Shown here in pieces: positions 26,542 through 46,723 of a stretch of 64,000 bases of DNA. The first letter of the stretch is position 1; every line of letters starts with the position of its first letter. The position numbers and the translations under genes are program-made. The notes under the pieces are model-generated. The model ran no database searches. It saw nothing but the letters and a program-made list of their open reading frames with translations, and was not told the origin of the DNA. Source of the DNA: Planctomycetota bacterium (lineage in GTDB: Bacteria > Planctomycetota > UBA8108 > SXIK01); the NCBI GenBank assembly GCA_965223265.1, contig OZ244999.1, positions 9,056,001 to 9,120,000 of the forward strand, in the 5' to 3' direction.

Positions 26542-26946
26542 ATGGCGAAGGGTCGAGTTCTCGTGGTTGATGACGATTTGGACTACGCCAAGCTGTTGGC
26601 ACTAGGGCTCGAGGATTGTGACTACGAAGTCGCCGTCGTCAGCAATGGCGCAGAAGCGCTGAAGCGGATGCCGGAGTTTCAACCATCCTACGTCGTCGTG
26701 GACACCCTCATGCCCGTGATGGACGGCCTCGAGTTCGCTCGCGAGGTTAAGGGCGACGGGAGTTCAATCGTCGCGCTTGTGATGCTCAGTTCGATCGACG
26801 AACGAGCTACCGCCGTGGAATCAATCCTTGCCGGCGTTCAAGAAGTTCTCGTCAAACCCGTCGGCATCGAGGTCGTCGTGGAAGCGCTTGACAGAGCAAA
26901 AGTCCGAGCGGAGGCGCAGCTCTTGAAGGAGGCTTCGCCGGAGTAG
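26542..26946 (+). CDS. Single-domain response regulator (receiver)
   Basis: VLVVDDD, DTLMPVMDG (phospho-Asp), MLSS, LVKP. Confidence 0.92.
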   Translation: MAKGRVLVVDDDLDYAKLLALGLEDCDYEVAVVSNGAEALKRMPEFQPSYVVVDTLMPVMDGLEFAREVKGDGSSIVALVMLSSIDERATAVESILAGVQEVLVKPVGIEVVVEALDRAKVRAEAQLLKEASPE

Positions 26947-26950
26947 CTCG

Positions 26951-29900
26951 ATGTGGAAACTCGATATCTTTCCAGACACTGGGCTGTCGGAGTCAGTCGT
27001 TACCACGGTTTGGGTTGGCGTCTGGGTGATCAGCCTCTTGAATTTGCGATTCGGGTGGACGTACTCCGGTCTCGTGATTCCTGGCTATATCGTGCCGCTA
27101 CTGATCATCAAGCCGTGGAGTGCTTTGGTGGTCGGCTTGGAGGGAGTGATCACGTATTTGATCGTGTGGGCGTTTTCGGAGAAGTGCTCGGAATCGGGAT
27201 GGTGGTCCAATCTGTTCGGCCGCGACCGTTTTCTTGCTCTCGTTTTGGTGAGTATTTGCGTACGCATTCTCTTCGACGGCTACTTGCTACCCCTCTTCTG
27301 TGATCTGGCTGAGCTCTTTATTCCTCTTCGAATCGACTTCAGGTTAAGCCTTCACAGTTTCGGATTGATCATCGTTTCGCTCATTGCGAATCAATTCTGG
27401 AAGCCTGGATTGCGCCGAGGGATCGCTCCGTTTGCAGTAACACTCGCTGCGACGTTCTTGCTGGTTCAATACGTGCTCATACCATTTACGAATTTCAGCA
27501 TCAGCAAGCTGGAGTTCATGTATGAGGATATCTCAGCTTCGCTCCTGGCCAGTCCCAAGGCCTACATCATCCTGATCACGACGGCGTTCATGGCGTCGAG
27601 GATGAATCTACACTACGCCTGGGACTACAACGGGATTTTGATCCCCTCACTGTTGGCTTTGCAGTGGTACGAGCCTTTAAAGATCGCGACGTCGTTCATC
27701 GAGGCGTTCGCGATTTACTTCATAGGATCACTGTGTTTGCGCTTGCCTGTATTGAAAGATTCGACGATCGAAGGCGCACGAAAACTTCTCCTCTTCTTCA
27801 GTATTTCTTTTATCTACAAACTCATCATTGGTCACGTCTGTGACTGGTTTCACGTTCAGGTGCGGGTATCCGATCTCTATGGATTTGGCTATCTACTACC
27901 GACATTGATGGCTGTCAAAATGCATGACAAGGGGATCATGGCGAGATTGACCCGCGCGACGCTACAGACCTCGCTGACAGCGGCGGGGACTGCAAGCGTA
28001 ATCGGTTTTGTCCTGACATTGATTCCCGTCGGATTCTCGGAGTCGCACGCAGATTTGAGTATCTCTGAGGTTCCGGAGCGAGCTTGGAGCTTGCGAGAGG
28101 AGGTTCAGAGGGTCAAGGAGAACGCCTATTCACCGACAGTGAGTCGCCGAGCGGAGTTGCCTCTACCCCGAGAGTTGGCGGCGTTCTCTGAGGGATTAGA
28201 TCGCCTGAAGTCGTATCTCGCGGGACGCTCTCACGTCGAGCTCGATCGCGCTCGCAAAGCCTTTGGGGCGACCAACTACGAGGTGCTGCTACTTGAGGAT
28301 CGATACATCGTCGTACGTGAGAAACCACCGGAGAGAGGGTGGGGATTCTACTGTTTCGACCTCATGGCGAAGGACGGGCTGGTCATCGAGGTGCCGAGGC
28401 CGTTGGCGGAGTGGGGAACCCTGGAATCAGCGGCGTATTTGATGAGCTATCTCGATGGTGGTGCACTGGCGGTGTCGACTGCGGAACAAGGCAACAATGC
28501 GCACGGCCGACGGGAGTCGTTGGTAGCTTTTCGAACCATGCTCGGTGCATTTCATCGGCGCTGGGATCCCCGAAACATTCTGCAGGTAAGAGGGTATACC
28601 GTCGGTTCGGTGAGGGGCCTCTATGGTCGCCGAGTCGAGGTGGACGACCTCGGGACGCTGGACATTCCCTCTAGCCTGTGGATCAAACGCAGTATACCGT
28701 CGGGACTGACGATCCGCGGTGTGGAGAACGTCGTCCGGGAGCTGACAGTCGAATGGCGTGAACCGTCGTGGCGAAACCCACTACGTGAACGATCTCATGC
28801 CGGCTTTGCAGAACTCTATCTCCATCGTTCGGACCGTCGACGTCTACTGGCGCGATATCACGTCGGTGTTGAGCGTGTCGGAACGCTTGATCGGTACCGA
28901 GCAAGTGAGGGGTATTTGTGGCGGGAGGTTCTTTCGACCCGCAGCGACCGCAGCGGTTGGCGTTCGGAGGCGATCGAGGCTCCGAGCGTCGAAATGCTTC
29001 TGTTTTTCGATCAAGAGATCGTTGGCCCGTTAGCATCTCTCGTGCAGAGGACTTCGAGGGGTGAGATCTCCTCGGAAGAAGTCTCTGAGGAGTTGATCAC
29101 GATCGGCGCGGCTGCAACACCGGTTGGATATGCCGTGCAAAAATTCACGGACGTTTCTGACGGCAGTGAATTCTTGATTCTGTATGAGCGTGAAGACGAC
29201 GCGTGGCGTGGCTGGGGAACCTACGTATTCCGACTCGGTGAGAGTTCCGATTTTTCCGTCCACGTCCCCAAGCCCTCCTCTGAGAAGGGAACGCTAGAGT
29301 TCTCGCTTGCCCTTTTCCATCGGCTGAACGCTAGCTTCCTGCTCATCTCAGGAAGTGATGGAGGTAGTGACGGACGCGAGCGAGTCGACGTAAGCAAAGA
29401 GCGTCTGACCCTGTTCAACCTCACGCACCAGGTGATCCTCCGTACGCTGAACGTTCATAGACATCTGGCCGTTCAAGTGCGCGCGTTTAGCTATCGAAAC
29501 GTGCCAAGCTCGGTACCTGCGGATTGTCTACTGGGTTTCGCACCAGGGGCTGCGAACGGTGGTGGTGTCGGACGCCTGGGGCTCCGACTTCTCGAACAGC
29601 TCGAGTCTCAGGGGAGGCGCGTTCGAGTGATTTCAGGCGAAGAGGAGACCTTGGGCTACGATGCACGCTCGAGCGTGCAGTCGGGTTACCTCACCAGCAC
29701 GAAGGAGAAAGAGTTCGCCGTGCTCTGGCTCTCTCCTCTGTTGCGCTCAGCGTTTCCCGCGGCAACGACGTTGCAACGTCAAACCGAGCAGTTTGAAGCC
29801 GTGGGTATTCCAACAGAGATCGGTGACCTCGAAGAGATCATTGCTGCGTATGAGGTTGATCAATCGCCGGACGGAGTTCCGAAGCGGTTGCTAGAGATTG

Positions 29901-30181
29901 TTGGTGCGTATCAAAGAACGCAGAATCTCAACTGCCTTGTCGCGTTGATCGAACTGTGGCCTGACTTCTCGTTTCGCCGCGTCGTCGACAGTCGCTCAGG
30001 GGGGGCATTCGTTCTCGTCGCGGTCGACGGGAAGCTGCTACCGAGAGTTTTGAGCCTGTCCTTGACGCTCGACGGAGGTGCGCCAGGATTACTCGAAACA
30101 GTAACGCTACACGACCAAAAGTGGGCGTGGTCTTCGTCGCCGAGAGGGTTCTTGTTGGAGAAGCGTGACGATGAAGATTAG
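26951..30181 (+). CDS. PgsC/CapC-family poly-gamma-glutamate biosynthesis membrane protein with a large C-terminal extension
   Basis: GWTYSGLVIPGYI matches the CapC GLVVPGY motif; LFGRDRF; IIVSLIANQFWKPG; second copy at WDYNGILIPSLLAL; ~700-aa soluble tail. Confidence 0.78.
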   Translation: MWKLDIFPDTGLSESVVTTVWVGVWVISLLNLRFGWTYSGLVIPGYIVPLLIIKPWSALVVGLEGVITYLIVWAFSEKCSESGWWSNLFGRDRFLALVLVSICVRILFDGYLLPLFCDLAELFIPLRIDFRLSLHSFGLIIVSLIANQFWKPGLRRGIAPFAVTLAATFLLVQYVLIPFTNFSISKLEFMYEDISASLLASPKAYIILITTAFMASRMNLHYAWDYNGILIPSLLALQWYEPLKIATSFIEAFAIYFIGSLCLRLPVLKDSTIEGARKLLLFFSISFIYKLIIGHVCDWFHVQVRVSDLYGFGYLLPTLMAVKMHDKGIMARLTRATLQTSLTAAGTASVIGFVLTLIPVGFSESHADLSISEVPERAWSLREEVQRVKENAYSPTVSRRAELPLPRELAAFSEGLDRLKSYLAGRSHVELDRARKAFGATNYEVLLLEDRYIVVREKPPERGWGFYCFDLMAKDGLVIEVPRPLAEWGTLESAAYLMSYLDGGALAVSTAEQGNNAHGRRESLVAFRTMLGAFHRRWDPRNILQVRGYTVGSVRGLYGRRVEVDDLGTLDIPSSLWIKRSIPSGLTIRGVENVVRELTVEWREPSWRNPLRERSHAGFAELYLHRSDRRRLLARYHVGVERVGTLDRYRASEGYLWREVLSTRSDRSGWRSEAIEAPSVEMLLFFDQEIVGPLASLVQRTSRGEISSEEVSEELITIGAAATPVGYAVQKFTDVSDGSEFLILYEREDDAWRGWGTYVFRLGESSDFSVHVPKPSSEKGTLEFSLALFHRLNASFLLISGSDGGSDGRERVDVSKERLTLFNLTHQVILRTLNVHRHLAVQVRAFSYRNVPSSVPADCLLGFAPGAANGGGVGRLGLRLLEQLESQGRRVRVISGEEETLGYDARSSVQSGYLTSTKEKEFAVLWLSPLLRSAFPAATTLQRQTEQFEAVGIPTEIGDLEEIIAAYEVDQSPDGVPKRLLEIVGAYQRTQNLNCLVALIELWPDFSFRRVVDSRSGGAFVLVAVDGKLLPRVLSLSLTLDGGAPGLLETVTLHDQKWAWSSSPRGFLLEKRDDED

Positions 30182-32639
30182 GTACACTCGCACTGCAGCG
30201 ATTCTCCGTGTCACTTCGGTTGCTTTATGTGCTTCCCTTCTCGCTATCAAACTTGGCGGTGCGGCCCGTATCCCCAGCGTTGATTCGGTTGATCCGACAA
30301 GAGCGTCGAGCTCGACAGCATACGCGCTCCAGCTCGACGAGTGGGTCAAGTTCGATGTGAAGTTGGGTCGCCCTGAGGTCAAGCTCGTCACCAACGCCAT
30401 CGTCAACAGCTCCCGGATCGGACGCCGCGGTGACGTTCGATATGCCGTGGACTATCGCATCACCGATTCCGAGGGACAGTTCCTTGAGGAGGGGCGCCAT
30501 TGGATGATGTCACGGAGTAGCGCTCTGGCTACGACCGACGGCAGACGACGCTGGAAGTTTGTCAAAGGTCCTGGTCGTGAGGTCCTACAGAATCGCTCGT
30601 TTGTGATTCAAACTCGAGACGTTCCGCGAGCTGCCGAAGTGGCTGTGCGCCTCGGAAAGAAAGAGGAGGATACCGAGGCAATCTTTGTGCGCGGGTTCGT
30701 CAAAGATCTCGTGCCTCCATACCGTGCGAAATACCTATGGCACCGGTTGGCGCAAAACAAGCGCCAACTGCTAGCGAGGAGAAATGTCTACTCGGCAGAT
30801 CTATTGACGGACTTCGAGAAGGAGAACCTCCTGCGAAATCGATGGGTCGCGATCCCCCCGATTGACGACGCCGCTTCGGCCGTCCGCGAGAGGTTGTTTA
30901 CGGTCGTCTATCGTTCGGCCGAGGATGACCAAGACTTAGCGGACAGCTCTTCATTCGTGCATCTCCAGCCAGAGATCGTCGAAGTCATAAGGATTCCTCC
31001 TCAATCCGAGTCTCTCGTCATGTCGGTGCGAGTTGGGGAGGAGAGCAGTCCGGAGCAGCCGAGACTTTGGTGCCGATGGAGGGATGTCGACAATGACGAA
31101 ATTGTGGAAGAAGAGATCGAAATCGTCAGCTCACCGATCCGCATTGAGCGACGAGTCAGAGGGTCGACTTTGGAGCTCCGCGGAAATCATGTGTTTGGCC
31201 TACAAGTTCAGGCGTTGTCGGGAAAGGAGAGGAGAGTTCTCTTCCCAGAGCGGGAACGAGTGCGAGCCTACCGTCCCCTCGGCAACGTCCCTCTTGAGTT
31301 TGACACTGTTCTGCACTGGAGAGACTCGACGCCGTTTCGCATACATCTTCGGGTTCTGCGTTCGGAAGAGTCCTCGGCACTTCGCGAAGTGGTCGCTGTC
31401 AACTACGAGCTGATCGCCCTCGATCGTCGCGTCATGGGGCGTGGTTCGCTCATACACAGCGGCGCGATCAGCAAGTACGCAAGTGTGAAAATCGGTGGCG
31501 AGTGGATACCAGTCAGCGATCGTTCAATTCACTACTTGACCGTCCCGCATGGTTGTCACTTCGTGCGCCTATCAAGCCCGGTCGATGGGTTGCTCGTGTC
31601 TGTTGCGACACGACCCAATGACCTGCCGTTACGCAGAACCGTGCCTAAACCGATTCACGAGGACGTACAGACGGGGTCGTCGCTGGGCGTCGGCCGCAAT
31701 TGGTTTTCGATCTATCCCTCGAACGCTGGCGATCTCATCAAGCGAGGTCGAGAAGTCTTCGTCACGGTGCGCCCACGACCGAAGTCGGACGTTGTCGATA
31801 CAACAGTATCTTACCAATCGAAGACGCTCCACCCAACTACGATCGCAACTGGGACCGATGTACTTGTGAGGTCCAAACCGGCGTCATCCGGTCCGTTGGA
31901 TCTTTACCGTTTCTACGAACTGACGTGCGGGGACGAGCGGGAGATCGTTTGTCAGGACGCACGTCATCCGCCGCCCCTCGAAATCCTCGTGATTCGCCCG
32001 CGTGCCACTGCGGGCATCATAGAGGTTCTGCTGCACGGGGAGTCAGTCAAGCAGGCAGTCACGCTGACGCGTAGCTCCTATTTTACGTTGGAAGAAGTCT
32101 CGCGCGGATCGGCATCGTTGCGTGTCGATTGCAGCGGTGGAGGTCGAGTTTTTATGCGCGGTTGTGTCGACCCTGACGCAGACGTCTGGAGAAAACGACG
32201 CGTTTATCGTTTGGGTCCTTCCAGCCCACTTGGCTATCGGGTGGCGAAACGGACGGCGGGAACTGAACGTATTAGATTCTCCGCGTTGCAATCACTTGAC
32301 GTCGGATCGCCGTTGGTCGTACGGGTATCCATCCAAGGCTTTCAGAGGACTTCACCTTCAGCCTGGGGTTCATGGACGGCGAAAGAACGAGTCGTGACCC
32401 TTGGGTTCGGGGCGGAGGCGGGCGCTCTCGGCATCGAGACGGATGAGGGCGAGGAGTTTGCAGCTCAAAGTTTCACCGTGTCGCTTGGAGATGATGTCCC
32501 TCCTGGAAGTTACGACGTCCAGGTTAGCGTCGTCGAAGGAGAACCATCTTGGTTCGGAGCTCGACATCTGGTCGAGAGGAATTCGCAGGGAAGCAGTGTG
32601 CGAACTCGCCGTGACCGGTCGACGGGGGGGGCACGATGA
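30165..32639 (+). CDS. Hypothetical exported beta-rich protein (PGA locus)
   Basis: Long ORF overlapping both neighbours; N-terminal hydrophobic signal/anchor; beta-strand-rich sequence. Confidence 0.7.
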   Translation: MTMKIRYTRTAAILRVTSVALCASLLAIKLGGAARIPSVDSVDPTRASSSTAYALQLDEWVKFDVKLGRPEVKLVTNAIVNSSRIGRRGDVRYAVDYRITDSEGQFLEEGRHWMMSRSSALATTDGRRRWKFVKGPGREVLQNRSFVIQTRDVPRAAEVAVRLGKKEEDTEAIFVRGFVKDLVPPYRAKYLWHRLAQNKRQLLARRNVYSADLLTDFEKENLLRNRWVAIPPIDDAASAVRERLFTVVYRSAEDDQDLADSSSFVHLQPEIVEVIRIPPQSESLVMSVRVGEESSPEQPRLWCRWRDVDNDEIVEEEIEIVSSPIRIERRVRGSTLELRGNHVFGLQVQALSGKERRVLFPERERVRAYRPLGNVPLEFDTVLHWRDSTPFRIHLRVLRSEESSALREVVAVNYELIALDRRVMGRGSLIHSGAISKYASVKIGGEWIPVSDRSIHYLTVPHGCHFVRLSSPVDGLLVSVATRPNDLPLRRTVPKPIHEDVQTGSSLGVGRNWFSIYPSNAGDLIKRGREVFVTVRPRPKSDVVDTTVSYQSKTLHPTTIATGTDVLVRSKPASSGPLDLYRFYELTCGDEREIVCQDARHPPPLEILVIRPRATAGIIEVLLHGESVKQAVTLTRSSYFTLEEVSRGSASLRVDCSGGGRVFMRGCVDPDADVWRKRRVYRLGPSSPLGYRVAKRTAGTERIRFSALQSLDVGSPLVVRVSIQGFQRTSPSAWGSWTAKERVVTLGFGAEAGALGIETDEGEEFAAQSFTVSLGDDVPPGSYDVQVSVVEGEPSWFGARHLVERNSQGSSVRTRRDRSTGGAR

Positions 32640-33568
32640 GAGCCTCTCGTGTGCTCACCGAAGCGAGACGCAGCTCGCGACAGTGCTCTCTTGCACTCGT
32701 GGCGGCGGTTCTGTTGATTGGCGTCGCTGTTGAATCGTCGAGTTCTGATGCCGAGATTGGTGACCTCGTCAAACGTCGCGCCGAGGCACCGATGCTACGT
32801 CGTGTCGAGCGTCCAGAATTGGCGAAAGCGGAGCTGCTCTTTCATTCAATACTGAGCCAAGGTTGGAGCGCTCAAGTTAGTCGTCTTTGCGCGGAACTCG
32901 ACCTGAACATCATGAGAGTTCAGCAACACGGCGAAGGTTTTCTAGTCGTCGAAGAAGACGAGAGTCGTCGAGAGGGTCGTGGCCTCTTTGTTTTTCGCAG
33001 CACGGCAACTGAGCCGGTTTTCTTGCAGGCGCCTCACGCGTTTTTTGATCTTCGCACCGACGAAGTCGCGACACGGATGTTTCTTCGTACTCGCTGTGCG
33101 GTCGCAGCTTGGAATACGTGTCGGAGAGATGCGCGCGTTGTCGGGTCACAGCGCGTGGCGGATCTGTGCCGTCTCGACGCAACGTACTGGCAGGCGTTGA
33201 CAAGAGCCTTTGCACGCGCCTACCGGAGAGGCACGGTGGTGCAATTGCATGGATTCAGTCCCAGCCAGCGTTCAACGGTCGAAGCGAAACAGTATGAGTT
33301 GATTTTGAGCCGAGGAACGCGCTCTGGACATGAGGATCTGCTTGGAGTGAAAGCCTGCTTCGGAGAGAAAGTGCGGCTGCGCACCGCTGTCTTTCCCGTC
33401 GACGTTGAGGAACTTGGAGGGACGCGCAACGTTCAAGGGCGACTGCTCCGGAGCGTCGGAACAGGTTTTGTCCACGTCGAGATGAGTCCGAACGCCCGGA
33501 AACGCTTGATCACAGACGACGCACTCCTCGAGTGTTTCGCGCGATGCCTCATGGAGGTCGCAAGGTGA
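32636..33568 (+). CDS. Exported putative Zn hydrolase, PghP/gamma-PGA-hydrolase-like
   Basis: Signal peptide; QAPHAFFD, VQLHGF, LGGTRN, HVEMSPNAR parallel the APHGGGIE/LHG/LAG..N/QLEIS...R motifs of PghP-family enzymes; ATGA overlap with the upstream gene. Confidence 0.55.
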   Translation: MRASRVLTEARRSSRQCSLALVAAVLLIGVAVESSSSDAEIGDLVKRRAEAPMLRRVERPELAKAELLFHSILSQGWSAQVSRLCAELDLNIMRVQQHGEGFLVVEEDESRREGRGLFVFRSTATEPVFLQAPHAFFDLRTDEVATRMFLRTRCAVAAWNTCRRDARVVGSQRVADLCRLDATYWQALTRAFARAYRRGTVVQLHGFSPSQRSTVEAKQYELILSRGTRSGHEDLLGVKACFGEKVRLRTAVFPVDVEELGGTRNVQGRLLRSVGTGFVHVEMSPNARKRLITDDALLECFARCLMEVAR

Positions 33569-36500
33569 GGCGTGGCAGCGGGGGTATCGCACTCTTCTGC
33601 TTGATTGCGCTTGCGCGCCTCTATGGCGATGACTCCATCCGTATCGGAGACGGTTTGGATACGTCTCGATTTCCTACACGGTGGGACAACGTCGAGGGTG
33701 CGCCGTGGCTGGTTGGAGGGCCCTCTCCGAAGTGGGACGCTTCGCTGCGATTTCACGTGTTCCGCCTGCGCCCACATGAGGTCGTCGTCCTTCATGTCCC
33801 GATCGACCGGCTGTTACGTGTGGTTTTCCCAGGTATCACGCAACGATCGCACATCGAAGTCACGATCGATGGTGGCTCAGGGATGGAGATCCCGCAAGCA
33901 GGCGTGCAAGGTGACGATGGCTCGTGGTTCTTTCCGACTCGACGCTTTGGCAGTCATCTCTTCAGGTTGAGGAGTACGGACAACAAGAGTCGAAATGTCG
34001 CTGTGTTTGTAGGACGCGCGGATACCACTTTCACTCGACAGCTTGCTATGGGATCGTCGACGCTCGGTAGCGACCCGGTGCGCCTGCGTCGCGAAGGAGA
34101 GCTGATCGGTCGACGGTATTGGCGTCTTGGTCCAGGTAAGCCGATTCGTGTGAGGGTGCAAGGTGGTGGAGAGCTGAGTCTGCTCACGCGTTTCGAGTTT
34201 CCGCAATCTGAGTCGAGTCGCCAACAGTCCTACCGCATTTCCATCGAAGGTGCTGAAGATCCCAACGGGTTCGAAGTGCAGACTGTCCCTGACTCGGTTC
34301 CCACGTGGGTTGACGGTCGTCCTGTCTGCGTCGGCACGTCAAAGGTCACTCGATTTCTTGTGAACTCCTCGGTTCGAGAGATCACGCTGAGAGCGAGTCG
34401 AAACGTCTGGTGTCGATTGTTTCGGTCTGACGATTCGGTCTATTTCGCTGCGGCGAACCGGTCGCAGCACAGTCGACCTTCCGATCTCACGTCGTTGTCC
34501 CTTGGGGACGCCCCTTCTGTTGAGTCCGTTGGCAGCATCAGCGAGAGCTTTCGGTTTGCGAGTGTCCCGGCGACGGTTTTCGAGGCGATCCGTGGGGCTG
34601 AGCCGGCGGACCTACAGATTGCCGCAGCGTACTTCAGGGCGATGGCGACCTCCTTTGCCGTTGACGCGGACAGTCGTCGTCTGGCACGTTCCTGGTATGA
34701 ACGGCTGACAAGGCGGCGTCATCATTTGCCGCGTCACATGGCTGCGGGACGACAGATCGACTGGCGCTCGTACGTGATCCGAAACGCGCGCCCCGCGGGT
34801 GACGAATCGACGTCTACCAAAGTCGCCAAAGAGCAGTTCGCCGCGGCACTCACAAGTCTTGGGAGCGGAGCTTTTGCCGTTGTCCCCGAGACTCAAGCCA
34901 GGGCGGACGAGTATCATGTCGGTGCTCGTGATACAGGGGTTTGGCTGCGCTTAGTAGCCCGACAGGAGTCTCAAGGCGCGGAGTTCTGGCTACAGGCGGA
35001 TGACCAACCTCCCGTGCTCATTCGCTGCTCCACTCGCTTGCCGGCGAGGTGGCAGCGGACGTCGACGTCATTTGACGCAGCGGCGTCCCTCGTCGTGCAT
35101 GGCAATGGTCGGTGGAATCCGCTCGATATCCACGCTGCGCTCAGTCAGTACCAGCGTCCACACGCTTTCGTCGAGGTGTGGCACGGCGAGTATTTCTGCG
35201 TCGCAGGCGTGCGAACGATCAAGTTGTGGCGAGACGAAGGCGCTGCTCCAGTCGCCGTCTCCGTGCAGTCACGATCTGGGGCACCCATCGTGCCAACAGA
35301 GTCGGAGTTTCTTGACGAGCTGGAGAAGTGGAGAAGGAATGCCCCGCCAGGGGAGAGCTTGCTGCCGTATCTGCAGCGTTTGTGGGCGGCGCGCGAAAGG
35401 AACATCTCAGACGAGTCAACTGCTTCAGCCGGTGCCTTGAACGAAGTTCTTGCTTGGATTGACGCAAGCTGCGACGACGACGTCGGGGGCGTCCACGTCA
35501 ATCCACCGAGGAAGTACGTCTTTTCGGACATCGACCATTCGAGCTCCGAGGAGATCGAGTCTAACGCGATGGCTGCGGAGCAGACTGGGGACTGGCTGCG
35601 AGCACTCGAGCATTGGACCGATGCGTTCCGGCAGGCCGACCCCGTGCGTCGGCGACGAATCGACCTGGCACGGCTGAGATGTCTTTTGGAATTGGGAGAA
35701 CATTGGTTCGCGGAAGAGCAGATGCTAGGAATCGTACAATCGTCACGAGATTTCGTGCTGCGTGACGCGGTGAGGAACCGCTTGCTTGACCACGTCCGGG
35801 CATCCGGGAACGTGCGAAAAGAGCATCGACTGATCGCCTCCTTTCTGTGCCGAAGTAGTGACACCGATCTCGTCTCACGAATGGTCGAATTGAGCGCCGA
35901 GCGCGGAGCGACTCGACGAGCGCTGTCGCTCGGCCTAATTCTCCCCGCATGGAAGCAGCCCGTCGAAATCTTACTGAGGTCTGCCTACGAAGAACAGTGG
36001 TGGGACACCTTCGAGGCATTTCTACCCCTGCTTGAAAGCGAGAGCGCATCGTATTGGCGGGGAATCAGACTCGCCACGCAGGGGGCGTACGAGGGTGCGA
36101 TCGACCGCCTAAATCAGGGAGGTCCGCGTGGGCAAGAGTTGGCGAGCTTCGTGAGCTCTGCTCTCGCTGTCAGACGCAGCCTCAACGCCACCGATTTGGA
36201 GACACGTGTCCGTGGAGTGGGGCAATGGTTGAAACTCGAAGCCAGTCGTCCGGGTCCTCGACGTTGGCGCAGCGCCAGTGACTTGATTGCCGAGTTCGCC
36301 TCCAGTTGTGTTATCGAAACTCTGGACCAGCGCGTCCGAACGCTCTGGTTCGTCGCTGACTCGGACAGGAAGGTCAAGTTGCAAGTGTTCGGCCCGACAC
36401 GCCTGAGGGTCCGGTCGCGACGATTGTACGGAGTCGAACGAACCGATGCGGAGGATAGTTGGCTCACAGTGGACGACGGATCGAAGCGGCGAGTCTTCCC

Positions 36501-38940
36501 GTTGAACGTGACCAGGCCAAGTGATTCGACGCGACTTCCAGGCCAACCCGAAGTGCGCCCAGGACTCGAACAAGAGTTCGTATTCGTCGTCGATTCCGGC
36601 TTGCACACCTTTGAAATTGGAAGCACGAGTCCGCTAGCGATCAGGGTCTACGAGGAAGAAGCGAGCCTTCGCTTTGGTATTCTTCCGCGTGTGACTGACG
36701 AGGCGATGCAGTTGAGTCTCGCGGACCCAGCTGTTGTCGACAGTGGCGAATTGATCGTCACAGGACAAAGAGTTGAAGGAATTACACAGGACAAGGTGGT
36801 GCGCGGAGCGCTGTACCGAATCCCGCCGATTGGCGTCAGTCGCTCTCGCCGGACCGACTCGGACCCCATCCTTTCTGATCTCCGTCAGGAATTCGGTGCG
36901 TCTTCAGGCGTCACGGAGACCGAGGACGAGAGAGTGGTTCGTGAGCTGCTGGCGCGAAGTGTTGGAGATCATCGGGAAACAATCGTGAGTCTCCAGTCAC
37001 GGCTTGAGATCGACGCCGAAGAGCGCCTCCGTTCTTTGGCATACGTTGCCGAGCACGACGGCAGACTAAGGGACGGCGCTGTGGCGGTGGGTTTCGAGGT
37101 GATGAATCGAGAACGAGATGATCCGAGGCTTCGCTCCATTTGGTCTCGACTCCGTCGCGGTTATTCGTGGCAGCGAGTGGTGACGTTGAATGGCAGTGCC
37201 GGCATTAGGACGCTCCCGCTCGATGGGTGGCGACCCGAGTCGCCGGGGCTCCGGGTTCGGTCGCAGTTCTTGCGGTCGATGGAACGAGGCGAGACGTTGC
37301 TCCTCGGCACCGATGCTCTTCTCGTCACTGTGCGACAGCGGCAACCAACTTCGTTGAAGTTGCGCGTTGCCGCTGAGGCCGTAAGATTTCGACCGGTCGA
37401 AGTGACCTGGGTGCGGTACGAGCTCAACGATTGGGAGAGCCACGAGGTGTATCTGTCGAAAGAGACTCCGCGACGCGAGATCGTCCTGCCGATTCCAGCG
37501 GGCGAGCATCGCGTGCGCATCAGTGCCGTGTCGCCGGTGACAAATCAGTTTATCGCGGTGAAGGTGGTCGGGATCGAGACGTCGTCTGACCATGACCTGT
37601 CCGTTGTCGGCGGCTCAGAGTCCCAGCATCCAACGCGCAATTTTCATGTGGCTTCCACGGAGAGCCCAATCCGGCTGACGGTCGTAGGGCCTAAATGCGT
37701 ACGGATCGACGAGCAGCGTGGAGGCGGTACGGTGACGAGTTATCGCATCGTAACGAAAGAGATCGAAGAGATTGTGCTGCGGCCGCGAGGCGACGAGAAG
37801 GAGGCTTTGTTCAGGCTGTTTGAATTGAGCGCTAAGCCGTCAGCGCAACAGGAAGCACCGGAGATTGCTCGAGAAGAGGAACCAGAGGACTTGCCACCGC
37901 CTCAGCTCAATCCAAGACTTCGGCTAGGAGTTGATTCAGAGTCAGAAGTTAGCGTCACTGACGGCATTGAACTGGGAGGGCAAGAAGACGGAACTCTGAG
38001 CCTCGCTATCAAGGCCGAGCGGCGTCGGATGTTTGAGGAAGATGGTGACGTCATCATCGTCGCCGAGCAGTTCGTCGAGCTCGATGCGGTTCATCGCAAG
38101 CAGGCCGATTCACTGCCCGCTCACTTCGAAACGGGGCTCTTGGGTCGTCGCCGAGAGCGAGGAGGACCGACGATCGGCGCCTGGGAGAGGATCCGGTACG
38201 CGCCTGACTGGCTGCCCGTCACGTTGGGTGCGCAGGGGGAGGTCTTTGCCCAATGGCCGAGTGGCGATCCGATAGTTCCGTCAGGGCCACTCGAGTGGTC
38301 CTATAAGGTCGAAGCGGGCGCGTCTCGGCAGGTGCCGTTTAGTCTCAACGCGTTCATGTTACCGTCAGTGCGAGTCTTCGGTCGACACCTGAGTCTTTCT
38401 GATAAATCTCGCTTTGATCCGGGCGACCTAGATCAGGACGTCTTTTCCGAATTCAAGTACGACCACCGCTACGGACTCAAACTGTCCGATACATTCACAT
38501 ATCGTCCCTGGATCGACACACAGTGGCGGATGCGCGCCTCCGTCACTACGAATGAGGACTTCAATGTCTTTCGCCCCGATAGTGTTCGATACTCCGTCGA
38601 CTGGGGGCAGTACTTGGCTGGCTTTCAGATCGATGTGGGGTACCAGCTGACTTACTTCTTTGACGACTCAGATCGCAGCAACAGTCGGACCCGTCACAGC
38701 GTCAGCTTGCAGGCTACTCATGATGTTTGGAGTAACGTTGAACATCGTCTGGAAATCGGAGGGGTGTTTCGTCAAGACTTCCCAGAAGATCGCAGTACCG
38801 GAATGGTTTTTCTCGCGATCCACTTCGGAAAGGGTCGAGGGTATCGAGATTTTCGCCCGGGGGAGGTCGATTTCGTCGGCCTGAGGGAGCGGCGGATTCC
38901 AGACCGAGGTTTGAATCGCCTTGCCACGCAAAGAGACTGA
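33565..38940 (+). CDS. Very large exported protein with beta-sandwich modules, TPRs and a probable C-terminal outer-membrane beta-barrel
   Basis: GTG 33565 overlaps the upstream TGA and follows GGAGG; signal peptide; central TPR-like helices; last ~300 aa show alternating amphipathic beta-strands with aromatic residues. Confidence 0.7.
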   Translation: MRRGSGGIALFCLIALARLYGDDSIRIGDGLDTSRFPTRWDNVEGAPWLVGGPSPKWDASLRFHVFRLRPHEVVVLHVPIDRLLRVVFPGITQRSHIEVTIDGGSGMEIPQAGVQGDDGSWFFPTRRFGSHLFRLRSTDNKSRNVAVFVGRADTTFTRQLAMGSSTLGSDPVRLRREGELIGRRYWRLGPGKPIRVRVQGGGELSLLTRFEFPQSESSRQQSYRISIEGAEDPNGFEVQTVPDSVPTWVDGRPVCVGTSKVTRFLVNSSVREITLRASRNVWCRLFRSDDSVYFAAANRSQHSRPSDLTSLSLGDAPSVESVGSISESFRFASVPATVFEAIRGAEPADLQIAAAYFRAMATSFAVDADSRRLARSWYERLTRRRHHLPRHMAAGRQIDWRSYVIRNARPAGDESTSTKVAKEQFAAALTSLGSGAFAVVPETQARADEYHVGARDTGVWLRLVARQESQGAEFWLQADDQPPVLIRCSTRLPARWQRTSTSFDAAASLVVHGNGRWNPLDIHAALSQYQRPHAFVEVWHGEYFCVAGVRTIKLWRDEGAAPVAVSVQSRSGAPIVPTESEFLDELEKWRRNAPPGESLLPYLQRLWAARERNISDESTASAGALNEVLAWIDASCDDDVGGVHVNPPRKYVFSDIDHSSSEEIESNAMAAEQTGDWLRALEHWTDAFRQADPVRRRRIDLARLRCLLELGEHWFAEEQMLGIVQSSRDFVLRDAVRNRLLDHVRASGNVRKEHRLIASFLCRSSDTDLVSRMVELSAERGATRRALSLGLILPAWKQPVEILLRSAYEEQWWDTFEAFLPLLESESASYWRGIRLATQGAYEGAIDRLNQGGPRGQELASFVSSALAVRRSLNATDLETRVRGVGQWLKLEASRPGPRRWRSASDLIAEFASSCVIETLDQRVRTLWFVADSDRKVKLQVFGPTRLRVRSRRLYGVERTDAEDSWLTVDDGSKRRVFPLNVTRPSDSTRLPGQPEVRPGLEQEFVFVVDSGLHTFEIGSTSPLAIRVYEEEASLRFGILPRVTDEAMQLSLADPAVVDSGELIVTGQRVEGITQDKVVRGALYRIPPIGVSRSRRTDSDPILSDLRQEFGASSGVTETEDERVVRELLARSVGDHRETIVSLQSRLEIDAEERLRSLAYVAEHDGRLRDGAVAVGFEVMNRERDDPRLRSIWSRLRRGYSWQRVVTLNGSAGIRTLPLDGWRPESPGLRVRSQFLRSMERGETLLLGTDALLVTVRQRQPTSLKLRVAAEAVRFRPVEVTWVRYELNDWESHEVYLSKETPRREIVLPIPAGEHRVRISAVSPVTNQFIAVKVVGIETSSDHDLSVVGGSESQHPTRNFHVASTESPIRLTVVGPKCVRIDEQRGGGTVTSYRIVTKEIEEIVLRPRGDEKEALFRLFELSAKPSAQQEAPEIAREEEPEDLPPPQLNPRLRLGVDSESEVSVTDGIELGGQEDGTLSLAIKAERRRMFEEDGDVIIVAEQFVELDAVHRKQADSLPAHFETGLLGRRRERGGPTIGAWERIRYAPDWLPVTLGAQGEVFAQWPSGDPIVPSGPLEWSYKVEAGASRQVPFSLNAFMLPSVRVFGRHLSLSDKSRFDPGDLDQDVFSEFKYDHRYGLKLSDTFTYRPWIDTQWRMRASVTTNEDFNVFRPDSVRYSVDWGQYLAGFQIDVGYQLTYFFDDSDRSNSRTRHSVSLQATHDVWSNVEHRLEIGGVFRQDFPEDRSTGMVFLAIHFGKGRGYRDFRPGEVDFVGLRERRIPDRGLNRLATQRD

Positions 38941-41900
38941 GAGCAAGCCTGTTTACCTTCTGCTGGTGCGTGGTCTCAATCGATACCAACGCCAGTTGAA
39001 CCGCGCGCTCTTGGAGCGACTCTGTCGTGAATTCGACAAGCGGCCACGCGTCGCAGATCTGCGGCGCGGGTCTAGGGACGCTTCACTTCTGGTCTACAGC
39101 CTCTTCGCATTTCTGCAGGCAAAGCTCAGCGAGACGTTGACGACACTTCAGGATCTCCGTCGGCGTTACAATGAGTTCGCGAAACGTATCGGGAGAGCCG
39201 CGACGCTCAATGAGCGTGAGCGGCAAGTCCTTGAGTTCTCCCGAGATCTTGGTGCCGATCGCAAGACACTTCGCGGTGACAAGAGGGCGTTGAGTCGGTA
39301 CTTCGATGGCGAGGCGGTTACGGATCGTTTCAAGCGCCGTTGTGGCGAAGCCGAGCGGATGCTCTGTTTCGCGCTCGACCGACTTGCCGTGATCGGTGAG
39401 ATCGCAATCAACAAGGAACTGAATCGTGCTAAGAAGAAGGATGCCTGGGAACGTCTTGGTATTGAAGAATTGCTGCAGCAGTTCTGGACATACGACGGCG
39501 ACGCACGTGTCCGCGTTGCGGCGTTTCGTTGTCTCTCGCGGCTGCTGTCGGCTTTACCTGAAGGGGAAAAACAGGGCTGCGTCGCACAGACGACGCTTCA
39601 GTTTATCTATCGATCAGCGATGCACCAGCGACAGAGTGTTTGGCTTCAGTGCGCCGCGCTATCGCTCCTTGAAAACGTCTCGGGGGATTCTCTCTTTCGC
39701 GTGCTGCGGCAGCGGCTTCACAACCCAGGCGACCAGGCGGACGATATCTTTGTCCGCAAGCATGCGGCGATCATGGCGGCTCGAAATGTCGGTCGACTTC
39801 CGTCGTTGATCACGACGATTGAGCAAGTGCTCCAAGACCCGAGCCCGTACGTCCGACAGGGTCTCGCGCGGTCTCTCGGGAAGTATCCGCATGTCGATTC
39901 GGTTGCAATTCTTTGCCCGCTCGTTCATGACGACAAGTGCCATCAAGTGCGTGCTGCCGCAGTCTTGGCCATTGGTGACATAGTGCTTGAAGCGCCGTTT
40001 CAGGAAGAGGCACTGCGCAGATTGATACAGTCCCTCCGGGAAGAGCAACATGAGTTTGTCCTGCGGACGGTTCTACAAGTTTGCCAAAATATGACACATG
40101 ATCTCGGTGGTGTCCTTCCTGTGGAATGGTGGTGGGAATTCTACGAAGATCTGGAGCGCTTGCATGTTTCGGCCGACAGTGTGTCGGTGCGGCGCTGGGC
40201 AGCGCAGGCGCGCGACGTGGTCTGGTCCCGGATCGAACCGGAGGCGATGGCGCTCAGTGCGATCTGCCACGACGCTCTGCGTGGACTTCGGACGGGAGCA
40301 ACTCATAGAGTTCCGGCGCGGCTCGTCGATACGTACGATGAAGAGTCTCTTGGCCGATCACTTGCGACGGCCGTGACGCTCGACCATGGACTGGATGTGC
40401 GCCGGATTTGGAACGGATACAGTGTTACTCGCGGACAGCTGTTTCAGTTTCGCTTGTGGCGATTTCTCTATGAGGTGCGACACGCGTCCCCCGACAAGAG
40501 ACAGGCGCACAGCCACATGGTCGGGAGATACTTTGACGGTGAGCTACGAATTCCGTCCACCGTCCTCGCAGAACTCGCCCAAACGAAGGTGCCTGGCGAA
40601 CCACTCTTTCTGCCGGAAGAGAGCGGTTGGCGACCCTACCTCCCCCTTGTCGATGACGTGATTGCGTCAGCCCAGCACAGGTTTCGAGGCCGTGCCACCA
40701 GAATTTATACGAGCGAGGGAATCACTACCGTTCAGCCTCCTTCTTCGCTCCTTCGACGCCTTGCCGCGCTCTACCGACTTTCTACTCGCTATCCAGAATA
40801 TGCTCGTTTGCGGAATTGGCGTGAAGGATCGCAGGTGAAAGCGGACGGGTATGTGAGGTCTCTCGAGGATCTTGGATTCTCGATTCAGATCAACCCCTAT
40901 CGAGGTCGCAAAGGACGTGGCGACACCCGTGTGGACCCGAAGGTAGAGAGGTTCTTTCCAGCGATATCGCTCGCTCCTCTGGTAGATCTCTGGTCCGAAC
41001 TGCGCGAGTATTTCTTTTCTGTTTTCGACAACTCGATTCAGGAGCTCATCCTTTTCTCGGGTGGGGTGTCAACTTACTTCGTTGGCAAACACATCCTCTC
41101 GAACGTAAGAATTCGTCGTAGTCGGAGCAGGATTCCACTGATCGTCGGTGGGTGGGGCACTCGCGGCAAGTCGGGTACAGAGAGACTCAAGGCGGCACTC
41201 TTCAGCGCACTTGGACATAGTATGGTGTCGAAAACGACCGGGTGCGAAGCGATGTTTCTGTACTCGCATGCGTTCGGGCAAACGAAGGAACTGTTTCTCT
41301 TTCGACCTTACGACAAAGCGACGATTTGGGAGCAGAGCAATCTTCTACGTCTGGCTTCCCAACTAGAAGGAGAGGTTTTTCTTTGGGAATGCATGGCTTT
41401 GACTCCCGCGTATGTGCGCATTCTTCAGCAGCGCTGGATGCAAGACGACATATCGACGATCACGAACACCTATCCCGATCATGAAGATCTTCAGGGACCC
41501 GCAGGCTTCAATATTCCCGAGGTGATGACGCTTTTCATCCCGCGCCGATCGACACTCATCACAACTGAAGAGGTTATGCTGCCGATTCTCTCGGAGGCTG
41601 CCAAGGACCAGGAAACCCGAGTGCAGCCTGTCACCTGGTTGGAGGCGGGTCTACTCACGGACGACGTTCTCGCTCGTTTTCCGTACGAGGAGCACCCGAA
41701 CAACATCGCCCTCGTCATGGCCCTCGCCGAGGAGCTCGGGGTCGATCCGGACTTCGCCCTCAAGGAGATGGCAGACCGGGTGGTTGCCGATCTCGGCGTA
41801 CTCAAGGTCTACCCCGTTTCCCGCGTAGAGGGTCGATATCTCGAGTTCACTAATGGCATGTCAGCCAACGAGCGTCACGGGTGTCTCGGCAACTGGACGC

Positions 41901-43165
41901 GACTCTCCTTTGACACTCAGGACGCCTACGAAAGTCCTGGCGTGTGGGTCACGACCGTCGTCAATAATCGCGCAGACCGTGTGCCGCGTTCACGCGTCTT
42001 TTCGCGCATTTTGGTTGAAGACGTCTCCGCTGACCTGCATTTTCTGATAGGCAACAACCTGAACGGGCTTGTTGGCTACATCGCGGAAGCCTGGGAGCAG
42101 TACCATTCCGAGTTTACGCTGTGGCCATCGGGTGCGTCTAATGAGATGGCTAAGAATAACTTCTTGGAGCAGGCACGTCGTTTACGAGTGCCTTGTGAAG
42201 AGAAGGATGTCCTCGACCGATTGCGCGCGATGATTCCCGCGGAACGTTTGACGGCTGAGGTGAAGAGCGATCTGGAGAGCATGTGGCGGCACCCGATCGA
42301 GCTTCGTGACCGGCTGGTGACCGGCGGCAAGGTGGATTACGTCGACGCAGTGATCAGTTGGCTCGAGAGACTCACAGAGCAGCTCGACGCACTGCGAGAC
42401 TGCGTCAAGAGAATTGAAACGGCGACCACTGATCGTGCACAAGTCGATCAGGACGCCGAGCGTTTGCTCTGGTCGTGGTTCAAATCTAAGCTTGTGGTCG
42501 TTGAAGACTACTACACACCAGGCGATCAATTAGTCTTTCGAATCGCTAGCGAGACGCCTCCGAACTACCGCAATCGCGTGCTCGGGATGCAAAACATCAA
42601 GGGCACGGGGCTGGATTTCGTCTATCGATGGCAGGCTTGGGACGCTTGCTACAAGGCGAGTCAGGACGCGGTAAGTAGTGATCCAGCAGTGGCGCAGCGA
42701 GGGGTGAATGCGTTGGCCGAATTCCACGATTGGGGGCTCCTCTGCGAGGATCGAATGCGACATGTTCTCAGCGAACTGGAGCGCGCGAAGGCTTCACAGA
42801 GTGAGGGCTTTCATGCTCAAGTGTCGCTGGTTGCCTCGGATTTCGAGCGGACGATTCGCAGTGTGCGGGATTCTCTAGGGAGCGGGACATCGGGGCAGAG
42901 TGGGATGTTCGCTTCCGTCGTCGCAACGCTCGAGGCGTTCTTCGATGCGGGAGACGCGGTGCGCAGACGAAAGATGGCAGATCGTATCTATCGGGATCTA
43001 GCCAACGAGCGCATCGGGTACGACCGAGCAGCTCAAGAGTTGCTCGCGATCATCAAACGGCAGAAGGGTGGTTGGCTCGCAAAGAGAATTCAGGGCTTCC
43101 ATGAATATAGTTCGAGAACGGTTAGGAAGCTTCTCGCCCAGATGAAGTCGTTAGGTTTTCGGTGA
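38921..43165 (+). CDS. HEAT-repeat protein fused to a CapB/PgsB-like poly-gamma-glutamate synthase (Mur-ligase fold)
   Basis: HEAT repeats (DARVRVAA, DPSPYVRQ, CHQVRAAA); GTRGKS P-loop, KTTG, ATIWEQ, ECMAL.P, ITNTYPDHEDLQGP, EHPNN, NGMSANE, NNRADRVPRS, MQNIKG. Confidence 0.85.
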   Translation: MPRKETESKPVYLLLVRGLNRYQRQLNRALLERLCREFDKRPRVADLRRGSRDASLLVYSLFAFLQAKLSETLTTLQDLRRRYNEFAKRIGRAATLNERERQVLEFSRDLGADRKTLRGDKRALSRYFDGEAVTDRFKRRCGEAERMLCFALDRLAVIGEIAINKELNRAKKKDAWERLGIEELLQQFWTYDGDARVRVAAFRCLSRLLSALPEGEKQGCVAQTTLQFIYRSAMHQRQSVWLQCAALSLLENVSGDSLFRVLRQRLHNPGDQADDIFVRKHAAIMAARNVGRLPSLITTIEQVLQDPSPYVRQGLARSLGKYPHVDSVAILCPLVHDDKCHQVRAAAVLAIGDIVLEAPFQEEALRRLIQSLREEQHEFVLRTVLQVCQNMTHDLGGVLPVEWWWEFYEDLERLHVSADSVSVRRWAAQARDVVWSRIEPEAMALSAICHDALRGLRTGATHRVPARLVDTYDEESLGRSLATAVTLDHGLDVRRIWNGYSVTRGQLFQFRLWRFLYEVRHASPDKRQAHSHMVGRYFDGELRIPSTVLAELAQTKVPGEPLFLPEESGWRPYLPLVDDVIASAQHRFRGRATRIYTSEGITTVQPPSSLLRRLAALYRLSTRYPEYARLRNWREGSQVKADGYVRSLEDLGFSIQINPYRGRKGRGDTRVDPKVERFFPAISLAPLVDLWSELREYFFSVFDNSIQELILFSGGVSTYFVGKHILSNVRIRRSRSRIPLIVGGWGTRGKSGTERLKAALFSALGHSMVSKTTGCEAMFLYSHAFGQTKELFLFRPYDKATIWEQSNLLRLASQLEGEVFLWECMALTPAYVRILQQRWMQDDISTITNTYPDHEDLQGPAGFNIPEVMTLFIPRRSTLITTEEVMLPILSEAAKDQETRVQPVTWLEAGLLTDDVLARFPYEEHPNNIALVMALAEELGVDPDFALKEMADRVVADLGVLKVYPVSRVEGRYLEFTNGMSANERHGCLGNWTRLSFDTQDAYESPGVWVTTVVNNRADRVPRSRVFSRILVEDVSADLHFLIGNNLNGLVGYIAEAWEQYHSEFTLWPSGASNEMAKNNFLEQARRLRVPCEEKDVLDRLRAMIPAERLTAEVKSDLESMWRHPIELRDRLVTGGKVDYVDAVISWLERLTEQLDALRDCVKRIETATTDRAQVDQDAERLLWSWFKSKLVVVEDYYTPGDQLVFRIASETPPNYRNRVLGMQNIKGTGLDFVYRWQAWDACYKASQDAVSSDPAVAQRGVNALAEFHDWGLLCEDRMRHVLSELERAKASQSEGFHAQVSLVASDFERTIRSVRDSLGSGTSGQSGMFASVVATLEAFFDAGDAVRRRKMADRIYRDLANERIGYDRAAQELLAIIKRQKGGWLAKRIQGFHEYSSRTVRKLLAQMKSLGFR

Positions 43166-43239
43166 GTTCAGCACCCAGCAGGCGCATGAGATCTCGGCTG
43201 CAGTTGTGAGGCGCCGGCTGTTTCGTCTGCCTGTAGTGT

Positions 43240-45390: not shown

Positions 45391-45466
45391 ACCTCCTCAC
45401 GCACGGCGCATTCGAGCCGACGTCAGAAGGATAGGATGGGTTTCCGGAACGCGCAAACGTGCACGC

Positions 45467-46720: not shown

Positions 46721-46723
46721 GAT

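Follow-up and report, generated by a model that had tools for sequence, protein, structure and literature searches.

A candidate trans-envelope cassette for an acidic polyamide in diderm bacteria

RESULTS

Layout of the gene block

The window analyzed here, a stretch of 64,000 nucleotides (nt) from a Planctomycetota bacterium (GenBank assembly GCA_965223265.1, contig OZ244999.1, positions 9,056,001 to 9,120,000), carries at 26542-43165 (+) six tightly packed open reading frames (ORFs) of the same orientation, with relatives of poly-γ-glutamate (PGA) synthesis proteins among their products. In order, they encode a receiver, a CapC fusion, the three proteins p824, p310, and p1802, and a HEAT-PgsB protein (Table 1). 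By the ORF coordinates, the first junction is a 4-nt gap and the following ones are overlaps of 17, 4, 37, and 20 nt. The length of p1802 is counted from a GTG start; an ATG four codons downstream would give 1798 amino acids (aa).

An initial annotation, made from the sequence alone, had described six co-oriented genes with tight or overlapping junctions, among them a receiver, a CapC fusion, and a HEAT-CapB protein. The coordinates agree with that layout, and Pfam and NCBIfam matches agree with the domain names. The six genes stand, but as a unit they are incomplete, since a seventh gene, for a CHASE2 sensor, belongs to them too, and the receiver is an optional member. No capA, capD, or racemase gene had been seen, and the same holds in our scan: among the 36 window ORFs of at least 120 aa, there is no member of the CapA, CapD/GGT, or racemase families, and no CapA/PgsA, CapD, or PgdS-type partner of a Bacillus-type locus. 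CapE (about 47 aa) is below the size covered by that scan.

Table 1. Cassette genes and their domains, in positions of the window
Feature	Position	Strand	Description
CHASE2 sensor gene	23085..25781	+	898 aa, GHKL ATPase domain (histidine-kinase-like); conserved first cassette gene
Receiver gene	26542..26946	+	134 aa, single-domain CheY-like; optional cassette member
CapC fusion gene	26951..30181	+	1076 aa; two CapC/PgsC membrane domains, one extra hydrophobic helix, two PghP-like pseudo-hydrolase domains
CapC domain 1	27014..27418	+	residues 22-156; PF14102 82.4 bits on half protein; TIGR04011 E 1.5e-11
CapC domain 2	27587..27946	+	about residues 213-332; PF14102 66.9 bits on half protein; TIGR04011 E 8.5e-9
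Pseudo-hydrolase domain 1	28133..28861	+	about residues 395-637; homologous to p310
Pseudo-hydrolase domain 2	28955..29794	+	about residues 669-948; homologous to p310
p824 gene	30165..32639	+	824 aa, predicted exported or membrane-anchored; N-terminal hydrophobic segment
p310 gene	32636..33568	+	310 aa, predicted exported; Zn-amidohydrolase fold, PghP / N-formylglutamate-amidohydrolase-like
p1802 gene	33532..38940	+	1802 aa, predicted exported; β-rich N-terminal 600 aa, helical repeats, β-sandwiches, C-terminal β-barrel
TPR-like helical repeats	35359..36243	+	p1802 residues ~610-904; 16 helices in model
C-terminal β-barrel	37945..38931	+	p1802 residues ~1472-1800; 16 long strands (DSSP on model)
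HEAT-PgsB gene	38921..43165	+	1414 aa, soluble, TTG start; HEAT-repeat half, ligase domain, conserved C-terminal 300 aa
HEAT repeats	39818..40075	+	residues 300-385; HEAT_2, E 9.5e-12
PgsB-like ligase domain	41078..42073	+	residues 720-1051; TIGR04012, E 2e-59

The ligase protein and its CapC partner

The PgsB family TIGR04012 matches the HEAT-PgsB protein with 201.2 bits over its whole length and with 205.1 bits (E 1e-60, model positions 10-327 of 380) on residues 690-1110 alone. The sole other family to match the ligase domain, cyanophycin synthetase, has 10.7 bits (E 0.098); neither MurC-F nor FolC matches the domain at E ≤ 10. A grouping of the CapB domain with other Mur-type ligases, which the initial annotation had considered, is thus not what the sequence comparison suggests (PgsB 205 bits, next family 10.7). 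Mur-type ligases are marked by a nucleotide-binding P-loop and a DH motif. Here, the P-loop G746-T747-R748-G749-K750-S751 is invariant in 25 sequences, and so are N849 and D853-H854-E855-D856. No hydrophobic segment was found in the protein, and its HEAT half and last 300 residues match no other family. More than 1450 homologs of about 1400 aa are found, with 44-50% identity. Proteins of about 720 aa, encoded on long contigs (P0261, P0251, P0277, and others), consist of the PgsB domain and the C-terminal region only, an indication that some lineages encode the HEAT half separately.

In the CapC fusion, PF14102 (CapC) matches two stretches (134.7 bits and E 2.8e-39 on the whole protein), and each half passes the gathering cut-off of 27 bits alone. 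With the PgsC family TIGR04011, the halves reach 44.7 and 35.8 bits. Compared with each other by hhalign, they are only weakly similar (probability 14%), although each matches Pfam CapC. Ahead of the last CapC helix is a conserved basic loop, in which K327 and R335 are invariant and R332 occurs in at least 90% of the sequences. There are more than 465 full-length homologs of the fusion, of about 1080 aa and with 39-46% identity. The check with hidden Markov models for PgsB and PgsC that the initial annotation had proposed thus yields a match to both families, each below its NCBIfam equivalog cut-off; judged by these matches, the window's ligase and CapC are a divergent branch of PgsB/PgsC.

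In a complex prediction, CapC residues 1-365 and PgsB residues 690-1110 reach a score of 0.48 (runs 0.48, 0.43, and 0.49), the best of three controls giving 0.00. The contacts agree by at least 89% across runs and the partner has a predicted local distance difference test score (pLDDT) of at least 69. Of 157 solved complexes in the calibration, 116 reach the mark, as do 2 of 215 mismatched pairs; only 18 of those 157 complexes reach it at 0.60 or below, and both passing mismatches do so too. Sequence searches of the PDB with the HEAT-PgsB protein, the CapC fusion, p310, and the p310 profile retrieve only designed HEAT/alpha-Rep proteins or chance matches; no PgsB or PgsC structure is matched by sequence, nor a Mur ligase structure with HEAT-PgsB.

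p310 and its homologs within the CapC fusion

The AlphaFold 2 (AF2) model of p310 has a pLDDT of 90.8 and a predicted template-modeling score (pTM) of 0.85. With it, Foldseek finds 91 matches in the PDB at E ≤ 1e-3, all of them Zn peptidase or amidohydrolase folds. They include the γ-PGA hydrolases YndL (5onj), PghP (3a9l), and that of phage PM1 (21dc), with template-modeling scores normalized by the target (TMt) of 0.51, 0.54, and 0.56; these are the highest target-normalized values (0.51-0.56) among the PDB matches and come with the lowest root-mean-square deviations (rmsd, 5.5-5.9 Å). Other matches are the N-formylglutamate amidohydrolases 2q7s and 2odf, DapE, M14 carboxypeptidases, the γ-glutamate-cleaving CCP5, and aspartoacylase-family proteins. 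Against BFVD, rank 3 is a phage (Bobb) poly-γ-glutamate hydrolase. The protein that had been called a 310-aa hydrolase is accordingly, in its model, a Zn amidohydrolase with solved γ-PGA hydrolases among its structural matches. Its N-terminal hydrophobic segment spans residues 13-39. H134, D138, H205, H280, and E282, among others, are invariant in 30 sequences.

PghP and its relatives are described as zinc-dependent γ-PGA hydrolases (PMC4497714). The modeled fold of p310 resembles that of PghP/YndL (PF05908) and of the N-formylglutamate amidohydrolases (3a9l, 5onj, 21dc, 2q7s, 2odf), whereas PghP/PF05908 and p310 have no significant sequence match. p310 is about 100 residues longer than PghP, with a signal-type N-terminus and an Asp for PghP's Glu in the first block. 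The p310 blocks APHAFFDLRT, QLHGF, and VHVEMSPNARKR and the PghP blocks SPHAGGIEVGT, SFHGY, and VQLEISSAQRR follow in the same order, as matched by eye only. By eye too, without superposition, H134, D138, H205, and E282 can be likened to metal or catalytic residues of PghP; the corresponding PghP residues reportedly bind zinc, as Fujimoto and Kimura are said to have found in 2012.

The CapC fusion contains two further copies of this hydrolase-like domain. The p310 alignment matches pseudo-hydrolase domain 1 with an hhalign probability of 98.1% (E 8e-14) and domain 2 with 97.0% (E 8.8e-11), and the two domains match each other with 99.7% (E 3e-25). In the alignment of 25 fusions, the CapC-fused copies are without the His ligands: PA or PR stands for the PH of p310 and QVRGY for its QLHGF, so that the two His residues of p310 are Ala or Arg, and Arg, respectively. 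The CapC-fused domains are probably binding modules, not enzymes. In the window, domain 2 has SGSD--GGSDGRERVD in place of the family AGxHPxANxDGSAD (29300-29450, residues ~795-815), with an alignment gap of 2 residues, and by this comparison it is more degenerate than the domain 2 of relatives.

Some genomes carry p824 and p310 as natural fusions of 1157-1233 aa (P0447, P0466; L071:13179-16655), and the p310 profile matches the C-terminal part of such a p824+p310 fusion with an hhalign probability of 100%. A 1150-aa relative of p824 (P0419) was considered as another p310 fusion and is not one. Because of the basic loop before the last CapC helix, the export-type N-terminus of the homolog p310, and the natural p824+p310 fusions, we infer that the CapC-fused domains are periplasmic.

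p1802 and p824

The AF2 model of p1802 comprises residues 603-1802, was built from 38 sequences, and has a pLDDT of 80.3 and a pTM of 0.61. Between the helical repeats and the C-terminal barrel, it contains a β-sandwich (910-1044), a helical part, partly of low confidence, and further sandwiches (1211-1434). For the helical part, Foldseek finds the TPR domain of AspH; for the barrel, it finds OmpG (TMt 0.58-0.67), OprD/Occ proteins, porins, and the FimD usher, with AlgE at rank 47 among the p1802 matches listed. Helical repeats and an outer-membrane-type barrel, the two parts of the "TPR/barrel" protein of the initial annotation, are thus both present in the model. The top Foldseek rows for the whole 1200-residue model, Cry-type crystal proteins and a phage fiber, were rejected as multi-domain noise (TM ≤ 0.10, rmsd 24-62 Å). 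In the ESM Atlas, p1802 falls in clusters of its own family, with TPR, BcsC, and PgaA at 0.81-0.83 as weak leads only. Pfam and NCBIfam scans of p310 and p1802 at permissive E-values gave nothing that was accepted; a match of ANR_neg_reg to 26 residues of p1802 (E 0.0022) is below the cut-off and was dismissed.

The barrel strands alternate hydrophobic and polar faces. A rough estimate of charge, taken from this strand periodicity and not from coordinates, gives a net positive lumen, with family means of +17.9/-12.4 over 93 lumen-facing positions and +3.2/-3.3 over 88 lipid-facing ones. A positive lumen in the modeled barrel would suit a polyanion.

The hydrophobic segment of p824 covers residues 10-36. 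No Pfam or NCBIfam family matches p824 even at permissive E-values, and the ESM Atlas returns unnamed clusters only. A profile search finds 1251 representative clusters at E ≤ 1e-3, of which the top 150 are all ortholog-like. Residues 263-493 of p824 resemble residues 75-320 of p1802 (hhalign 89.5%, E 2e-6).

Conservation of the cassette across genomes

An alignment of 25 CapC fusions was searched against 185,579 species genomes, one per species; 432 stretches matched and 407 were confirmed as relatives. Gene content was counted in the best 80 of the 407 loci, with at most 10 kb of flank on each side. Neighbors were called by tblastn with the window proteins (E ≤ 1e-5), the same strand and order being required, and only loci with enough flank enter each count. 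The recurring order is sensor, [receiver], CapC fusion, p824, p310, p1802, HEAT-PgsB. p824 is present in 56/61 loci, p310 in 45/49, p1802 in 45/48, and the start of HEAT-PgsB in 38/44; of the 6 loci missing HEAT-PgsB, 3 end just past the long p1802 gene. Of the 59 loci whose upstream flank suffices, 53 have the CHASE2 sensor directly upstream and co-oriented. The receiver occurs in 28/75 loci and is absent from 47/75. Such recurrence of one gene order in dozens of unrelated genomes is far more than chance would give.

By genome names, all 80 loci belong to diderm lineages: 66 are from Pseudomonadota, 10 are of Desulfobacterota type, 2 from Planctomycetota, 1 from Verrucomicrobiota, and 1 from Campylobacteraceae. 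The closest relatives of the window proteins are those of Planctomycetota. Groups of ecological importance are among the carriers, again by genome names: sulfur-oxidizing symbionts, methanotrophs, nitrifiers, the wastewater bacteria Competibacter and Accumulibacter, sulfate reducers, and planctomycetes; cultured among them are Vreelandella salicampi, V. massiliensis, Desulfocicer vacuolatum, Belnapia moabensis, and Silicimonas algicola. The synteny across diderm bacteria, for which the initial annotation had proposed a survey, is found, the accessory genes occurring together with capB/capC and in the same order in Pseudomonadota, Desulfobacterota, Planctomycetota, and other lineages.

The conservation ends at the cassette borders. 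In the 80 loci, neither the genes downstream in the window (VWA/DUF4114, a 417-aa ORF, DUF455) nor the upstream 577-aa ORF are conserved with the cassette. The only further candidate for a conserved gene upstream of the sensor is a mixed cluster of signaling proteins from 20 loci, joined by generic domains. Thiodiazotropha loci have a CHASE2-GGDEF-EAL protein upstream of the cassette, and a Chromatiaceae locus has a Hpt-REC-GGDEF protein there (L008:2042-4531, L010:865-3435, L015:1385-3031). From these GGDEF proteins, a link to cyclic di-GMP (c-di-GMP) is possible in some lineages; it is not conserved overall.

The sensor and the receiver

Pfam places CHASE2 at residues 48-296 of the sensor (E 1.8e-7) and HATPase_c at 797-894 (E 0.0012, below cut-off). 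The GHKL ATPase glycine boxes are kept. In 50 sequences of the family, the DHp-like region is without a conserved His: none of the alignment columns between residues 516 and 898 of this sensor has His in 30% or more, and at the position expected of the H-box the family has Q-(L/I)-R-N-D-x-E-S. The conserved phospho-accepting His of a two-component kinase is thus missing, while the receiver (Response_reg, E 1.7e-20) looks intact, with its acidic pocket DDD at 10-12, D54, and K105 kept. The CHASE2 sensor may act directly on the synthase, as a pseudokinase.

The distance from the end of the sensor gene to the CapC gene is, in many loci, about 40 nt. In the window, a gap of 760 nt (25782-26541) separates the sensor and receiver genes, which abut in other loci. 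No σ70-like promoter, terminator, or Rfam match was found in that gap. Promoter and terminator scans of 25600-27000 and 43000-43400 gave nothing of use, and Rfam has no match anywhere in the window.

Other genes in the window

Three genes on the reverse strand converge on the operon end (43240-47746): they encode a 716-aa VWA/DUF4114/CarboxypepD_reg protein, the 417-aa ORF product, whose biotin-carboxylase-like match is weak, and a DUF455 protein. Farther downstream, a 634-aa protein of the Pup-ligase family (PF03136, E 6.8e-79) is encoded at 59297-61201 (-). Upstream are found a protein of 1384 aa that combines a Ser/Thr kinase domain with MalT-like TPR repeats (16550-20704, +) and, at 8147-11601, three family-2 glycosyltransferases with a DUF2304 protein, adjoined on the other strand by a 663-aa TPR protein (11611-13602).

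DISCUSSION

A proposed machine across two membranes

The cassette is best explained as a trans-envelope machine that would polymerize an acidic amino acid at the inner membrane and export the chain through an outer-membrane barrel, glutamate in γ-amide linkage being the most likely choice; we put the probability of this reading at about 0.62. In such a machine, the soluble HEAT-PgsB protein would dock on the double-CapC protein, the two forming an ATP-dependent synthase like that of PgsB and PgsC in Bacillus. The chain would emerge on the periplasmic side, where the dead PghP-like domains fused to CapC could bind it and so stand in for CapA/PgsA, which is missing. Its way across the periplasm would be guided by p824 and by the repeat and sandwich regions of p1802, and the C-terminal barrel of p1802 would be the exit pore. 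The Zn hydrolase p310 may trim or clear stray polymer, like AlgL, BcsZ, and PgaB for polysaccharides. The CHASE2 sensor, plus the receiver where present, would set the activity. Of all this, the domain identities, the two modeled folds, the homology of the three hydrolase-like domains, and the conserved gene order are results; the topology, the tasks given to p824, the HEAT half, and the sensor, the nature of the polymer, and its export are interpretation.

Several observations weigh against this reading. Both synthase matches stay below the NCBI equivalog cut-offs, PgsB with 201 versus 222.7 bits and PgsC, on the whole fusion, with 65.6 versus 96.45 bits, and the CapC/PgsB complex prediction is a weak pass only. 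With TM values of 0.3-0.56, the structural matches of p310 are modest, and PghP ranks behind several other Zn hydrolases by E-value. Against PF05908, none of 30 members is significant (one of 30 reaches E 0.096), and the p310 profile meets the PghP of phage phiNIT1 with E 0.053 by hhalign and, in a one-sequence search, E 0.057 by hmmsearch. Generic porins match the barrel better than AlgE does, the matches listed include neither BcsC nor PgaA, and p1802 has no Pfam match to BcsC_C, PgaA_barrel, or TPR; its lumen charge is the rough estimate given above. The periplasmic position of the CapC-fused domains is a prediction from the positive-inside rule and homology. Finally, 5-6 loci of giant sulfur bacteria, plus Silicimonas, are without the canonical order. 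In L024, L035, L064, and L075 (Parabeggiatoa, Thiomargarita), the CapC fusion is present and p824 was not found downstream, L075 having a p824 relative upstream on the opposite strand; in Silicimonas (L068), the ligase and sensor genes are inverted and lie upstream.

Because the PgsB and PgsC matches are below the equivalog cut-offs, a changed substrate is possible, and the same architecture could make another product: a polyamide of a different amino acid, a mixed or branched acidic polymer, or, in place of a free polymer, glutamyl chains set on a periplasmic or envelope acceptor. This we hold to be unlikely. The ligase protein does have about 1000 residues beyond its ligase domain, yet PgsB is the sole ligase family matched, with a margin of about 195 bits. 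In structure, p310 is no nearer to PghP than to N-formylglutamate amidohydrolase, DapE, or the M14 carboxypeptidases; its structural neighbors, on the other hand, act mostly on amides of acidic amino acids. The lack of a racemase, CapA, and CapD among the window ORFs of at least 120 aa (CapE being below that size) would be in line with another product, whereas CapC is, by the Pfam and NCBIfam family descriptions, known from PGA systems only. A lumen estimated to be net positive also weighs against another product.

It is quite improbable that the polymer stays in the periplasm or bound to the surface, for example acting as osmoprotectant, metal buffer, or part of a sheath, with p1802 as an anchor or scaffold instead of a pore. 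The best match of the barrel is the 14-strand OmpG, and about 1470 of the 1802 residues of p1802 are outside the barrel, both of which would fit such a scaffold. A TPR-like region and a C-terminal barrel in one protein are, however, the arrangement of the BcsC and PgaA exporters, and the lumen-facing residues are polar as well as net positive. No CapD-like anchoring enzyme was found in the window scan, and no release factor is known either. Hardly any weight can be given to an uptake system that would import and degrade external PGA, which would account for a barrel in the outer membrane, for a hydrolase that looks active, and for pseudo-enzyme domains of a binding type, since the most conserved proteins are the ATP-dependent ligase (52% mean column identity) and CapC (55%), and the conserved block has no inner-membrane importer or peptidase set.

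What is new and what would follow

The synthesis-and-export reading can be widened. The cassette would then stand for a widespread, undescribed secretion class of diderms for a non-ribosomal polyamide (γ-PGA or a relative), with four families that have no Pfam or NCBIfam model (p824; the PghP-like hydrolase with its dead CapC-fused copies; the repeat/barrel exporter; the HEAT-fused PgsB), gated by a CHASE2 pseudokinase and not by c-di-GMP, and a convergent counterpart of the alginate, cellulose, and poly-N-acetylglucosamine (PNAG) machines. For this wider claim, we consider the odds to be even.

Homologs of CapB and CapC have been reported before from diderms, Planctomycetes among them (PMC5542703), and a citation in PMC4928254 names Fusobacterium nucleatum as the first PGA producer among Gram-negative bacteria. 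The "PGA" model of CapsuleFinder needs CapB and CapC only, and the parts of its description available to us mention no outer-membrane route, fusions, p824, p310, p1802, or sensor (PMC5542703). Since the capB/capC homologs of diderms have been reported, what is new is not the synthase genes but the fusions and the proposed machinery for export. The initial annotation had known of no characterized PGA secretion machine of such a design; the literature searched gave none, and no paper on CapC/PgsB fusions, the accessory families, or an outer-membrane PGA route.

The exit of γ-PGA is poorly understood even in Bacillus, and for diderms we found no export route in print. The cassette offers a concrete, testable model with a defined gene set. 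If the model is right, four large protein families currently without annotation would receive a role, and the presence of an anionic polyamide matrix in the carriers would bear on the biology of biofilms, granules, and sheaths and on metal binding. Gram-negative hosts used for production could gain a native PGA secretion route.

Comparison with known systems

For the Bacillus PGA synthase, the catalytic core is described to consist of PgsB and PgsC, and PgsA too is given a role (PMC4928254). As in the Bacillus PgsBCA(E)/CapBCADE systems, a PgsB-type ATP-dependent amide ligase and a CapC/PgsC partner are here encoded in one operon. The differences are several. Compared with Bacillus PgsB, that of the window is fused to a HEAT half of 700 aa and a tail of 300 aa and is without the hydrophobic anchor. 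Unlike Bacillus PgsC, the CapC of the window comes in two copies joined to two pseudo-hydrolase domains. Neither CapA/PgsA nor CapD was found among the scanned ORFs of the window. There are four further conserved genes, which we read as serving the second membrane.

Synthase-dependent exopolysaccharide secretion is known in the layouts of alginate (Alg8/44-AlgK-AlgE-AlgL), cellulose (BcsA/B/Z/C), PNAG (PgaABCD), and Pel. The logic that the cassette would share with them is that one operon provides a synthase of the inner membrane, a polymer hydrolase of the periplasm, a scaffold of helical repeats, and a barrel of the outer membrane. This likeness of layout was the proposal of the initial annotation, and those parts of it that can be tested by computation held (the ligase class, the synteny, and the models of p310 and p1802). 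The joining of a helical-repeat scaffold to an outer-membrane barrel, as in Alg, Bcs, Pga, and Pel, is seen at the level of the fold only, in the p1802 model. Because p1802 matches none of TPR, BcsC_C, and PgaA_barrel in Pfam, its likeness to BcsC, PgaA, and AlgK-AlgE is one of design. As a candidate periplasmic hydrolase, p310 has a hydrolase fold in its model and an export-type N-terminus, and it may cleave the system's own polymer. The synthase of the exopolysaccharide systems is a glycosyltransferase, in contrast with the amide ligase here, and in the seven cassette genes, no glycosyltransferase, no PilZ or other c-di-GMP receptor, and no GGDEF-type domain was found. The likeness to exopolysaccharide secretion thus looks like convergent design, not membership, and we see in the cassette a synthase of the PGA type, re-engineered to suit an envelope with two membranes in the manner of synthase-dependent polysaccharide secretion.

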